Origin: Escherichia coli
Lineage (GTDB): Bacteria; Pseudomonadota; Gammaproteobacteria; Enterobacterales; Enterobacteriaceae
Strand: one strand, 5' to 3'
DNA: 64,000 nucleotides
Assembly (NCBI RefSeq): GCF_003790525.1
Contig: NZ_CP033635.1
Part shown: piece after piece, positions 1-3,553 of the stretch
Layout of the letters: each line of letters starts with the position of its first letter
How positions within the stretch are numbered: position 1 is the first letter of the stretch
Notes under the pieces: model-generated
Told to the model about the DNA's origin: nothing
Seen by the model: only the letters and a program-made list of their open reading frames with translations
Database searches by the model: none
Program-made: the position numbers and the translations under genes

Positions 1-191
1 GGCACGGCAATCTTAATAACCTCAAACCCTAAATCCTTCCCGGCTTTATCGGCAAACTTCCATTCGGTCTGGAACCACGGCTCTTCCGGTTGCTTCACCA
101 GAAAACCGAGCTTCAGGTTCTCCGCCATAGCGGATTGTGACATAACGGCTGCCAGACCAATGGCTGCCAGGGCTTTAGTAAATTTGTGCAT
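1..191 (-). CDS. araF: L-arabinose ABC transporter periplasmic binding protein, 5' end only (gene continues beyond window start)
   Basis: Minus-strand translation from ATG at 189-191 reads MHKFTKALAAIGLAAVMSQSAMAENLKLGFLVKQPEEPWF..., a signal peptide plus AraF N-terminus; runs off the window edge so absent from ORF track. Confidence 0.85.
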   Translation of the reverse strand, partial: MHKFTKALAAIGLAAVMSQSAMAENLKLGFLVKQPEEPWFQTEWKFADKAGKDLGFEVIKIAV

Positions 192-986
192 GGTTCTCTC
201 CAGCTTTAGTGTCGTTTTGTGTAGGGCAAAAACGAATGACATTCGTTAAATTAATCGGAAAACAAAGCATTACCTTTTAACTAAAAGATAAGTGACCGTG
301 TTGACATAGTTTTAGCGAGAAATTAATTCTCCATAGGAGAGCAATATCACATCGCAGAATTACAGTGAGAACGTGCATAAATTTAGCGGGAAAAGACATA
401 AGGAAAAGCCAATTTGTCTGACAAATTGTCTAGTGCACAGCAGATTAATCCATAAGATTAGCCTGGAAATCCTTGTTGTCTTTGGTACCCAGCGGGATGT
501 CTTTTTTTTAACCAGTCAATAGGCCACATTACCTGGCGTTGAGTTTTTGCAATGGTGTAATAACCGCAACTCAAAGATGTGGAAAAAGCGCGTCATTCAT
601 TTCGCCATTAATTATCACCGTGTTCATTAATTAACAGAACACGTATACTGAGAGCCATATCGCAAAAATGAAAAAACGTTTTAAAAAATCATTGCTTCAT
701 CATGAATTCAAATTCACCGATTAATATCAACAAGATACAAAAAGCACTATCATTAAAATTCATTGCAGTTACATTGATTTCATCAATGAAATGTAAAAAT
801 ATATAAACTTGATGATTTAAGCATTTTCTTATACCCATTCAGACGTTATTCTTATTTCAGATCATCGTCAGAATTGACTCCACGATCACATTTCGGACCG
901 GCAGAAAGGAATTATTCTGCAAACAGTAATTATGGTGTTTTGATTTATCTTGCACCTCTCCACTTCTGGATATAAGGATATTAGGT

Positions 987-2778: not shown

Positions 2779-3276
2779 ATGCTGAAACCAGAAATGATTG
2801 AAAAACTTAATGAGCAGATGAACCTGGAACTGTACTCTTCACTGCTTTATCAGCAAATGAGCGCCTGGTGCAGCTATCATACCTTCGAAGGTGCTGCCAC
2901 GTTCCTGCGCCGCCACGCCCAGGAAGAGATGACGCATATGCAGCGTCTGTTTGATTATCTGACTGATACCGGCAACTTACCGCGTATTAATACCGTTGAA
3001 TCTCCGTTTGCTGAATATTCCTCACTTGATGAATTATTCCAGGAAACCTATAAACACGAACAATTAATCACGCAGAAAATTAACGAACTGGCTCATGCTG
3101 CAATGACCAATCAGGACTACCCAACATTTAATTTCCTGCAATGGTATGTTTCTGAGCAGCATGAAGAAGAGAAACTGTTCAAATCGATTATTGATAAATT
3201 AAGCCTGGCAGGCAAAAGCGGCGAAGGTCTGTATTTTATCGACAAAGAACTCTCTACCCTCGACACACAAAACTAA
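2779..3276 (+). CDS. ftnA: ferritin FtnA (iron storage)
   Basis: ORF 2764..3276; internal ATG at 2779 gives 165 aa [30 protein letters not shown]..., ferritin family. Confidence 0.9.
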
Positions 3277-3280
3277 TGCT

Positions 3281-3310
3281 CTCCGGCGGCAGGTTTACTG
3301 CCGCCGTTTC
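3281..3310. terminator. terminator hairpin ctccggcggcag..ctgccgccg followed by TTTC, between ftnA and yecH
   Basis: GC-rich inverted repeat directly after ftnA stop. Confidence 0.55.
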
Positions 3311-3313
3311 AAA

Positions 3314-3553
3314 TCAGTGACGGCAAATCTTACTCTGATCGGTCGAAAAACCGTCTTCCGAAGGTATAAATTTGCCTTTTGCTGCCAGAAACGCTACCAG
3401 CTCTCCCGCAGTCATCCCTTCTGCCGAGCAGGTGTGAAAACGTGCCTGTTCACCAAAACGCGCTTTAATCGCAGCTTCCAGACTGGCATGCGTATATTGC
3501 TCGCCTGATTCAATCATCATATTTAACACTTCATGACCGTGAATAGAGTCCAT
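3314..3553 (-). CDS. yecH: DUF2492 family protein YecH
   Basis: 79-aa ORF MDSIHGHEVLNMMIESGEQYTHASLEAAIKARFGEQARFHTCSAEGMTAGELVAFLAAKGKF... Confidence 0.8.
   Translation of the reverse strand: MDSIHGHEVLNMMIESGEQYTHASLEAAIKARFGEQARFHTCSAEGMTAGELVAFLAAKGKFIPSEDGFSTDQSKICRH

Follow-up and report, generated by a model that had tools for sequence, protein, structure and literature searches.

Organization and composition of the araF-ftnB gap

The window analyzed here is a 64,000-nucleotide stretch of Escherichia coli DNA (RefSeq assembly GCF_003790525.1, contig NZ_CP033635.1), near the left end of which araF and ftnB are transcribed away from each other. The araF start codon (CAT at 189 to 191) lies on the minus strand, with the gene starting at 191, and ftnB starts with the ATG at 987, leaving a gap of 795 bp from 192 to 986; the equivalent gap in K-12 measures 796 bp and has nothing annotated inside. 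GC content is 35.1% in the gap versus 48.9% across the whole window, and it falls to 26.8% in the core from 600 to 830 (73% A+T, above the approximately 70% A+T used as a criterion for H-NS-silenced regions). The lowest 200-bp GC value within the gap, 25.5%, belongs to the bottom 0.24% of 200-bp segments across the 64 kb. The earlier note on this DNA, made from the sequence alone, had described a long AT-rich gap with A/T tracts, and both descriptions hold: nine tracts of at least 5 bases are present versus 3.95 ± 1.89 in composition-matched shuffles (P = 0.018). With respect to length, only one gap is longer among the 40 annotated in the near-identical strain XDL over the 50 kb that were aligned, counting those of 30 bp or more (median, 107 bp); this ranking is approximate because the window and XDL lose register further along.

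We consider it very probable that the gap is not a single element and instead consists of three pieces lying side by side:

192 to 477: araFGH control region, 73 to 79% identity across genera
478 to 785: spacer, fast-evolving and AT-rich, sitting where other genera have a DJ-1/PfpI gene
786 to 986: ftnB promoter and leader, with a CpxR box, a −10 hexamer, a probable start near 860, and a 127-nt leader

Alignments across genera and within Escherichia generate matching boundaries. Positions 101 to 477 of the window align to every araF-bearing genus at 73 to 79% identity, and this homology ends abruptly at 476/477. From 478 to about 680 no counterpart was found in other genera by cross-genus alignment, and from about 680 to 986 the window aligns with Citrobacter ftnB-upstream DNA at 62 to 70%. 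Pairwise comparisons within Escherichia give 62% identity in the spacer, 88% in the araFGH control region, and 91% and 96% in the ftnB promoter and leader, respectively. Third codon positions within Escherichia are 77% (ftnB) and 75% (araF) identical, so the spacer diverges faster than these. The parts rank in the same order of constraint among eight E. coli strains, with 9.7% variable sites in the spacer and 0 of 127 in the ftnB leader. The known regulatory sites, described below, are located within the conserved pieces. A natural IS1 deletion in strain Ecol_542 takes everything to the left of window position 784 and spares just the conserved ftnB promoter.

These boundaries also revise the earlier division of the gap, which had assigned only the ~200 bp nearest araF to the araFGH promoter. 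The control region actually spans 286 bp and therefore leaves about 510 bp. The former figure of roughly 500 bp for the remainder thus stands as a length, but about 200 of those bases are the ftnB promoter and leader.

The araFGH control region

The following features were located between the araF start codon and the end of cross-genus homology:

192 to 302, minus strand: putative araF 5' leader of about 110 nt, conserved outward from the araF start codon in 20 genera/species
309 to 314, minus strand: candidate weak araFGH −10, TAAAAC, about 30 bp from the center of the CRP-like site and within a block conserved across genera
328 to 340: perfect palindrome TCTCCATAGGAGA, within the best-conserved core of the araFGH promoter, nearly invariant across genera
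336 to 351: CRP-like site GGAGAGCAATATCACA, center at 343.5, two mismatches to TGTGA-N6-TCACA, retained in every genus aligned
363 to 400, plus strand: promoter-proximal AraC dimer site (araFG1-like), direct-repeat half-sites at 363 to 379 and 384 to 400, 21 bp apart
412 to 426: perfect palindrome ATTTGTC-T-GACAAAT, between the two AraC sites
438 to 475, plus strand: distal AraC dimer site (araFG2-like), half-sites at 438 to 454 and 459 to 475, 21 bp apart, araI-like

The araF leader carries the Shine-Dalgarno sequence GGAG (CTCC at 198 to 201 on the plus strand) and a conserved block at 259 to 274, and its pairwise identity within Escherichia is 91%. The geometry of the promoter would place the transcription start near 302. 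Two bases upstream of the candidate −10, on the minus strand, lies a G at position 316. Hendrickson's work of 1992 reportedly describes the araFGH promoter as galP1-like, with a weak −10, no −35, and an important upstream G, and TAAAAC at 309 to 314 is a −10 candidate consistent with that description. Two-mismatch CRP matches occur at chance level in the 64 kb (24 found versus 28 expected). The position of the CRP-like site between the AraC sites and the −10 matches the known araFGH layout, and araFG1 and araFG2 are presumably the literature names of the two AraC dimer sites.

The AraC half-sites are direct repeats at 21-bp spacing, lie directly upstream of araF, and are conserved together with it. 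Both proximal half-sites are conserved across genera, with the one at 384 to 400 showing two mismatches to TAGC-N7-TCCATA, and the distal half-sites (438 to 454 and 459 to 475) show one and two, respectively. The distal site further shares an exact 15-mer, ATCCATAAGATTAGC (448 to 462), with araI in the K-12 araC-araBAD region (E = 7e-5), where it spans the I1/I2 junction, and the outer edge of this araI-like site coincides with the end of homology at 476/477. The TTGTCnGACAA core of the palindrome between the AraC sites is found in most genera and has been lost in the C. freundii group (C. werkmanii, C. gillenii, and Citrobacter sp. Cu233).

The likeness to araBAD, where I1 and I2 of araI are likewise two 17-bp AraC half-sites in direct repeat at 21 bp and AraC acts together with CRP, has limits. 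At araFGH the AraC sites do not adjoin polymerase but sit upstream of the CRP-like site. They face away from araF and make up two dimer sites with a palindrome between them, and the core promoter has only a weak −10 and lacks a −35. Positions 192 to 477 would comprise the whole of araFGH control. A weak promoter lacking a −35 would give a leader of roughly 110 nt, with a CRP site near −41 and the two AraC dimer sites farther upstream, and AraC with arabinose and CRP with cAMP would turn on leftward araFGH transcription. A second araF promoter has been reported in vitro (Maciag 2011, PMC3141248).

The ftnB promoter and leader

On the opposite side of the gap, the features up to the ftnB start codon are as follows:

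793 to 807, plus strand: CpxR box GTAAAAATATATAAA, its center some 60 bp upstream of the ftnB transcription start, identical to the published site (PMC9600279, Table S1)
847 to 852, plus strand: ftnB −10 hexamer TATTCT, conserved across genera (TATGCT in most relatives)
860 to 986, plus strand: 127-nt ftnB 5' leader with four GGA motifs at 895, 908, 968, and 976
901 to 920, plus strand: predicted hairpin GCAGAA-AGGAAUUA-UUCUGC whose loop presents a GGA, as is typical of CsrA sites

The start is placed near 860 because the reported leader is 127 nt long, and the −10 lies 7 nt upstream of it. The tandem GTAAA-N5-GTAAA pattern of the CpxR box is kept across genera, and ftnB expression has been reported to depend on CpxR, with a 2.2-fold drop in a cpxR mutant and induction upon Cpx activation (PMC2731931, PMC9600279); the regulation is also listed in RegulonDB. 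Published work on the leader counts four GGA motifs and describes footprints of CsrA at three sites, the strongest over the Shine-Dalgarno sequence, with CsrA binding at a reported KD of 13 nM and repressing translation (PMC6686035). In the leader of the window, one GGA motif lies over the Shine-Dalgarno sequence and another in the hairpin loop. All six pairs of the hairpin are kept in Escherichia, Salmonella, and the aligned Citrobacter except C. sedlakii, which is apparently misaligned by one base, and in Silvania confinis, Leclercia, and three further sequences the closing pair is A-U instead of G-C. Overall, the leader matches first codon positions in its degree of conservation. The CpxR box at about −60 would activate a promoter with a poor −35, and CsrA bound at three GGA sites, including the one that covers the Shine-Dalgarno sequence, would block ftnB translation during growth.

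Like the CsrA-repressed leaders of glgC, pgaA, cstA, and hfq, the ftnB leader combines several GGA sites with one in a hairpin loop and one at the Shine-Dalgarno sequence; we see no substantive difference from them, and ftnB is a published member of this class. The orthologous ftnB of Salmonella Typhimurium conserves the CpxR-type tandem repeat, the −10, the CsrA hairpin, and the Shine-Dalgarno block, but the locus there retains a DJ-1/PfpI gene upstream of ftnB and lacks araFGH, and a conserved Salmonella upstream block (TGAAAC...GTTTCA) is not kept in E. coli.

The second ferritin-family gene in the window, ftnA, lies about 2 kb away and resembles ftnB in its AT-rich upstream region and distant regulator sites. 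At E. coli ftnA, Fe-Fur reportedly reverses H-NS silencing (Nandal 2010, cited in PMC6686035). In contrast, the regulators of ftnB are CpxR, CsrA, and probably FNR, and a Fur box upstream of ftnB was rejected, its best 19-mer match being 12/19, equal to the shuffle mean, with matches in other genera also at chance. This agrees with published work (PMC3212961, PMC6686035); in E. coli, Fur was seen to have no effect on ftnB (PMC6686035). An upstream open reading frame in the leader (33 codons, TTG start) was likewise discarded: it is broken in most other genera, and in Escherichia it survives throughout only because the leader DNA hardly varies.

The spacer and the DJ-1/PfpI gene of other genera

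Across a synteny set of 38 FtnB-anchored loci, the distance between araF and ftnB is about 790 to 800 bp in all seven Escherichia lineages versus about 1,000 to 1,430 bp elsewhere. The extra DNA in other genera is a 185-amino-acid open reading frame on the araF strand that matches the DJ-1/PfpI family (PF01965, E = 3e-30). This gene is present at the locus in Citrobacter, Salmonella, Leclercia, and others; by tblastn it is full-length in 27 loci and decayed in 4, and it is absent from all Escherichia examined. No DJ-1/PfpI-like DNA was found in 5,426 complete E. coli genomes. A remnant in the E. coli gap was rejected as well, since tblastn gave nothing better than E = 6 and nhmmer with a 26-sequence DNA profile found none in eight Escherichia sequences at E values up to 100. 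The same profile did recover partial remnants in Citrobacter. One candidate relic of the DJ-1 stop region, TTAACCAGTCAATAGG at 508 to 523, shows a loose resemblance that is not conserved among Escherichia and was dropped.

The most economical reading, by parsimony, is that the DJ-1/PfpI gene was lost in the Escherichia ancestor rather than gained elsewhere. The spacer would then be the rest of the old divergent region toward ftnB, and the lengths are consistent with this, the 509 bp from 478 to 986 comparing with 489 to 558 bp between the DJ-1 gene and ftnB in Citrobacter and Salmonella. The half of the spacer near ftnB would retain upstream ftnB elements, including an FNR box, and the half near araF would have drifted beyond recognition. 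The gap would thus be long because a gene is missing and not because something hides there. The gene seen in other genera, the main reason for the length of the gap, is not visible from the E. coli sequence alone.

The spacer as a whole appears to be under little or no constraint, with a few short stretches conserved within Escherichia:

606 to 664, plus strand: island conserved within Escherichia, with CATTAATTA twice, a TATAAT-like hexamer, and a CRP-like TGAGAGCCATATCGCA
698 to 702: short conserved island CATCA
725 to 730: short conserved island TATCAA

In the largest of these, CATTAATTA occupies 606 to 614 and 625 to 633 and the CRP-like TGAGAGCCATATCGCA occupies 649 to 664; the hexamer at 644 to 649 is TATACT in this strain and TATAAT in the other seven E. 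coli strains aligned. A block that Citrobacter and Salmonella conserve may be the ancestor of this island.

Possible roles of the spacer in ftnB control

Two further features bear on whether part of the spacer works for ftnB:

717 to 730: FNR box, CCGAT-TAAT-ATCAA here (two mismatches), about 136 bp upstream of the ftnB start
754 to 759, plus strand: −10-like TAAAAT, 30.5 bp downstream of the FNR box center, a candidate by sequence geometry

Beyond gene loss, with which it is compatible, one reading adds a function to the spacer, and we give it slightly less than an even chance. H-NS would coat about 600 to 860 and silence ftnB, and FNR (at 717 to 730, in anaerobiosis) and CpxR (at 793 to 807, upon envelope stress) would overcome the silencing, much as Fur is set against H-NS at ftnA. 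The low GC content over 600 to 830 and the above-chance A/T tracts are in line with such a region. No full sigma-70 promoter-like sites were found versus 2.9 to 3.6 in shuffles, as expected for activator-dependent promoters, and the stretch from about 680 to 785 still aligns to Citrobacter ftnB-upstream DNA. In Salmonella, H-NS binds ftnB and deletion of hns raises its expression (as cited in PMC3212961), and Salmonella Typhimurium ftnB is described as FNR-dependent, H-NS-bound, and indirectly Fur-activated (PMC3212961). The FNR box is a perfect TTGAT-TAAT-ATCAA in K-12 and O157, and FNR binding at ftnB in K-12 has been detected by ChIP-qPCR (PMC2690998), for which 717 to 730 is the likely site.

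Several observations weigh against this control function. H-NS motif matches are enriched in the gap, but of the six only one is in the spacer and the other five belong to the araFGH part, and we discarded the motif scan as uninformative. The spacer diverges faster than silent sites, and the FNR box is degenerate in this strain, where a two-mismatch match is at chance level, as well as in other Escherichia clades. Ecol_542 lacks everything to the left of 784, and Fur showed no effect on ftnB in E. coli (PMC6686035). Given how AT-rich the region is and the Salmonella analogy, we regard control by nucleoid proteins (H-NS) as plausible. The earlier suggestion of an extended ftnB regulatory region under such control therefore survives in part: its extent is borne out by the CsrA-bound leader, the CpxR box, and the FNR box that is perfect in K-12, and the nucleoid-protein component keeps the weaker standing just given.

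A more specific proposal, which we regard as unlikely though worth stating, is that the spacer carries a second, anaerobic ftnB promoter. Its elements would be the FNR box centered at 723.5 and the TAAAAT at 754 to 759, with a start near 765 and a leader of about 220 nt, probably repressed by H-NS in air. A class II FNR-dependent promoter has its TTGAT-N4-ATCAA box centered about 41.5 bp upstream of the start. The FNR box of the window belongs to a rare haplotype with two mismatches, and three aligned strains with CTGAT, including the Nissle-derived SYNB1934, have one.

Leader RNAs, foreign DNA, and a hidden gene

Short RNAs from the ftnB leader were considered on the basis of published 3' ends:

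918 (K-12 1986856) and 961 (K-12 1986899), plus strand: mapped RNA 3' ends in the ftnB leader (Term-seq, PMC7815308)

These are the only 3' ends among those listed for K-12 1986100 to 1986999 (PMC7815308), and they would delimit RNAs of about 59 and 102 nt that might function, for example, as CsrA sponges or through regulated premature termination. The end at 918 falls in the 3' arm of the CsrA hairpin, and both the first-codon-position level of leader conservation and the 13 nM KD of CsrA are in keeping with a function. We nevertheless find this doubtful. The read scores (1255 and 886) are low compared with tens of thousands for neighboring entries, the leader has no terminator-like stem with a U run, and the end at 918 was scored as not Rho-dependent (PMC7815308). 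Decay intermediates shielded by structure or by bound CsrA would give such ends too, and the CsrA sites already account for the conservation of the leader.

The sharp left boundary at 477/478, the AT-richness, and the lack of any detectable homologue in other genera could also mean that 478 to about 680 is foreign DNA inserted in place of the DJ-1/PfpI gene rather than decayed ancestral intergenic DNA. This seems improbable to us, since 478 to 700 is single-copy in E. coli and turned up on plasmids in no more than two places; on the single-copy result we also rejected the idea that the spacer holds a mobile element or dispersed repeat. Furthermore, 478 to 680 has 39% GC and is not the most AT-rich part of the gap, and the 509 bp from 478 to 986 match the length of the DJ-1-to-ftnB region in Citrobacter and Salmonella. 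That region is poorly conserved even between Citrobacter species, and the failure of 478 to 680 to align is therefore to be expected.

The earlier note had further raised a hidden small transcript, and an unannotated small RNA or small-protein gene in the spacer is highly improbable, despite the TATAAT-like hexamer at 644 to 649 that adjoins the CRP-like 649 to 664 and is conserved with it within Escherichia, an 18-codon ATG open reading frame (668 to 724) intact in the window and K-12, and the ease with which promoters arise in AT-rich DNA. The conservation analysis that the note had called for gave the 62% identity within Escherichia reported above, below the 75 to 77% of third codon positions, and outside E. 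coli and its closest clade no spacer open reading frame stays intact. Predicted RNA folds have ordinary z-scores on both strands, the lowest of 64 segments (−2.1) lying in the araFGH part, and an Rfam search of the gap returned only sub-threshold noise, with nothing near a gathering score, so that a structured RNA in the gap was rejected. Nothing is annotated in the spacer in K-12 or in the 30 E. coli records listed, none of the listed Term-seq 3' ends falls between K-12 1986100 and 1986855 (PMC7815308), and we found no promoter-terminator pair of the kind that marks a small RNA, with no terminator past the candidate promoter. Terminator-like matches at 576 to 594 (plus strand) and 340 to 328 (minus strand) have weak stems and were set aside, the second being the palindrome of the araFGH promoter core.

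Significance

Overall, the gap is ordinary: it holds the studied control regions of two genes, split by about 300 bases of fast-evolving filler. Published work already covers what is functional in it, namely the promoter of araFGH, the ftnB promoter with its dependence on CpxR, and the leader bound by CsrA, and the remainder behaves as an unconstrained spacer, which leaves the region of little value for discovery. The case shows that a gap can be long and AT-rich without hiding a gene, and that related genera can reveal a gene that is absent here. It is also a clean natural example of the decay of a divergent promoter region, in which the half belonging to the missing gene has drifted and the ftnB half has been kept. 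Finally, the polymorphic FNR box suggests a testable strain difference in anaerobic iron storage, and if the anaerobic promoter proves true, anaerobic FtnB expression would differ between E. coli strains.

Coordinates and composition of the araF-ftnB gap

The gap between araF (minus strand, start codon at 189-191) and the divergent ftnB (987-1490, followed in order by yecJ, azuC and yecR) extends from 192 to 986 and measures 795 bp, as the note stated. The equivalent gap in K-12 MG1655 (1986129-1986924) is 796 bp and carries no annotated feature, though the annotation has azuR/azuC a short way downstream. Matches to the window's first 2.3 kb exist in 5,419 complete E. coli genomes, with strain XDL at 99.9%. 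GC content is 35.1% in the gap versus 48.9% in the window, with 26.8% over 600-830, and the lowest 200-bp value lies within the bottom 0.24% of the window; runs of at least five A or T number 9, against 3.95 ± 1.89 in shuffles (P = 0.018). These values bear out the long AT-rich gap claimed in the earlier note, which is real and ordinary in its explanation.

Three blocks under different constraint

Comparison of the gap with loci of other genera by blastn resolved three blocks. Window 101-477 matches every araF-bearing genus at 73 to 79% identity, with the alignment always ending at 476 or 477, and the stretch from about 680 (at best 636) to 986 matches Citrobacter ftnB-upstream DNA at 62 to 70%. 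Between them, 478 to about 680 had no blastn match in the other-genus loci, and this is the place where those loci carry a DJ-1/PfpI gene.

Identity and variability by segment (mean pairwise identity within Escherichia; variable sites among eight E. coli strains)
192-477, araFGH control region: 88%; 3.8%
478-785, spacer: 62% (4% gaps); 9.7%
786-859, ftnB promoter: 91%; 4.1%
860-986, ftnB leader: 96%; 0%

Third codon positions within Escherichia are 77% identical in ftnB and 75% in araF; the spacer therefore evolves at least as fast as silent sites, and both flanks are constrained.

Proposed loss of a DJ-1/PfpI gene

A scan for FtnB with one genome per species yielded 38 loci. The araF-ftnB distance is about 790 to 800 bp in all Escherichia lineages (E. 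coli, E. albertii, E. whittamii and the cryptic clades) and about 1000 to 1430 bp in Citrobacter, Leclercia, Lelliottia, Enterobacter, Huaxiibacter and Silvania, where the added length comes from a 185-codon gene, encoded on the araF strand, whose product belongs to the DJ-1/PfpI family (PF01965, E = 3e-30; the nearest NCBIfam model, DJ-1 family glyoxalase III, scores just below its cut-off). Full-length copies occur in 27 loci, among them Salmonella, which has no araF; the copy in one Leclercia (locus L037, about 2900-3480) is frameshifted, and three Citrobacter lineages (L015, L039 and L008; about 2900-3480) retain only fragments, each with a different internal deletion. The gene is decaying independently in several lineages, and Escherichia, which lacks it entirely, may show where this recurrent process ends. 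Neither tblastn nor a DNA-profile search that readily picked up the Citrobacter fragments found a trace of it in the Escherichia sequences, and a search of 5,426 complete E. coli genomes turned up no similar DNA. Another member of the superfamily, hchA (glyoxalase III, Hsp31), also lies in the window, at about 27128-27979 (XDL annotation, with a possible offset).

The simplest history is deletion of the DJ-1/PfpI gene, with a short 3' flank, in the Escherichia ancestor. The far end of the araFGH control region would thereby have come to adjoin the former divergent promoter region, of which the portion serving the lost gene would have drifted afterwards and the portion serving ftnB would have been retained. 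The 509 bp between 478 and the start of ftnB fall within the 489 to 558 bp spanned by the DJ-1-to-ftnB region of Citrobacter and Salmonella. In the Citrobacter and Salmonella loci (L012-L026, L010/L013), this interval holds a strongly conserved block, TTTTGTGAnnTGAAACAnnnTTTCA, with palindromic TGAAAC...GTTTCA, about 250 to 270 bp upstream of ftnB; it is not kept in Escherichia and may be a regulator site for the DJ-1/PfpI gene or ftnB. Separately, about 220 bp of Salmonella enterica subsp. diarizonae (L010, 2609-2827) matches window 166-424, the araF 5' end and promoter (64.5% identity, E = 6e-21), and looks like the scar of an araFGH deletion, since Salmonella lacks araFGH.

The araFGH control region

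On the araFGH side, the constrained control region covers 286 bp, its far limit coinciding exactly with the outer AraC half-site. Its conserved elements were called by phylogenetic footprinting.

Elements of the araFGH side
araF start codon and Shine-Dalgarno region: conserved by footprinting
259-274: conserved block
309-351: near-invariant core, including the next two elements
328-340: perfect palindrome TCTCCATAGGAGA, overlapping the left half of the CRP-like site
336-351: CRP-like site, two mismatches
363-379/384-400: proximal AraC half-site pair, direct repeat, 21 bp apart
412-426: perfect 15-bp palindrome ATTTGTC-T-GACAAAT, between the two AraC sites
438-454/459-475: distal AraC half-site pair, direct repeat, 21 bp apart

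The TCTCCATAGGAGA palindrome (328-340) was also flagged by a terminator scan on the minus strand. The distal AraC pair is almost a copy of araI, with which it has an exact 15-mer in common at window 448-462; the comparison used the K-12 araC-araBAD region, in which the canonical araI sequence was confirmed. The 412-426 palindrome looks like a regulator-binding site; its TTGTCnGACAA core is kept from Escherichia to Leclercia and Silvania and is absent from C. freundii-group sequences (C. werkmanii, C. gillenii and Citrobacter sp. Cu233).

The geometry of these sites suggests a class II CRP promoter whose weak -10 would be TAAAAC (314 to 309, minus strand) and whose start would lie near 302; counted from there, the AraC half-sites fall near -68/-89 and -143/-164. 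Such a layout agrees with the araFGH promoter that Hendrickson reportedly described in 1992 as galP1-like, without a -35 and with a weak -10 that only a double mutation brings to consensus. In the same work, araFG1 is said to be essential and araFG2 dispensable, names that presumably apply to the two AraC sites here.

According to Maciag et al. (2011, PMC3141248), the sigma-S holoenzyme preferentially transcribes araF in vitro, and does so from a second promoter in addition to the known one.

The ftnB promoter and leader

Elements of the ftnB side
793-807: CpxR site GTAAAAATATATAAA, identical to the published ftnB site (PMC9600279)
847-852: conserved -10 hexamer TATTCT/TATGCT, 7 nt before 860
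895, 908, 968 and 976: GGA motifs of the leader
901-920: hairpin of six pairs, GGA in the loop

ftnB is a recognised Cpx regulon member (PMC2731931, PMC9600279), and the tandem GTAAA-N5-GTAAA pattern is kept across genera. E. coli NR1430 (L047) carries a 2-bp deletion in the published CpxR box, at about window 799-800, that reduces the spacing of the two GTAAA-type repeats. In E. coli Ecol_542 (L048, 1536-2701), an IS1 insertion with an adjacent deletion (breakpoint at window 784) has taken part of otsA, araHGF and the gap to 783, leaving only the CpxR box, promoter and leader upstream of ftnB.

The ftnB start is placed at 860 because the leader described by Pourciau et al. (PMC6686035) is 127 nt; it has four GGA motifs and three CsrA footprints, of which the one covering the Shine-Dalgarno is strongest, and CsrA represses ftnB translation directly. 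All six pairs of the hairpin are present in Escherichia, Salmonella and the aligned Citrobacter except C. sedlakii, whose sequence appears misaligned by one base; in genera further removed, the closing pair is A-U instead of G-C. The full leader folds with ordinary stability (z = +0.8), which is what a leader that binds protein would be expected to show. Term-seq places two 3' ends in it, at window 918, scored not Rho-dependent, and 961 (PMC7815308); the former lies within the CsrA hairpin, on its 3' arm, and both could be decay intermediates or short leader RNAs.

Search for hidden elements in the spacer

Apart from these short leader-derived ends, the hidden transcript suggested earlier finds no support. 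Spacer ORFs stay intact only in E. coli or the clade nearest to it; folding in sliding windows gives unremarkable z-scores on either strand (minimum -2.1 among 64 windows, in the araFGH part); an Rfam search of the gap returned only sub-threshold noise; a strict sigma-70 scan of the gap gave zero full promoters in the window strain or K-12, versus about 3 expected; and the Term-seq entries listed (PMC7815308) hold no further 3' ends in K-12 1986100-1986999. The gap contains no Fur box, and 478-700 is single-copy in E. coli genomes.

A small island at 606-664, conserved within Escherichia, contains two CATTAATTA repeats, a TATAAT-like hexamer and a CRP-like site, and could derive from a block that Citrobacter and Salmonella both conserve. 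At the equivalent of window 717-730, K-12 has a perfect FNR consensus, TTGATTAATATCAA, and FNR is bound at ftnB in vivo by ChIP-qPCR (Lemmens et al., PMC2690998). A TAAAAT hexamer 30.5 bp downstream of the box centre makes this a possible but unproven class II FNR promoter, with a start near 765. The box reads CCGAT...ATCAA in the window and begins CTGAT in three aligned E. coli strains. The spacer haplotype of the window strain (478-860) is rare, with only 146 of 5,416 genomes at least 99% identical, and over 478-700 most genomes (4,016) are only 90 to 95% identical to the window; the changes in this haplotype include TT to CC in the FNR box and A to C in the TATAAT-like hexamer.

H-NS binding at ftnB in Salmonella is cited in PMC3212961, and by analogy with that gene and the neighbouring ftnA, H-NS likely coats the AT-rich stretch. 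The proposal of an extended ftnB control region is partly right, with CpxR, FNR and the CsrA-bound leader as its parts and H-NS a probable further one. The functional elements of the gap are already published; what is added here is modest, namely a proposed origin of the spacer through gene loss and the polymorphism of the FNR box.
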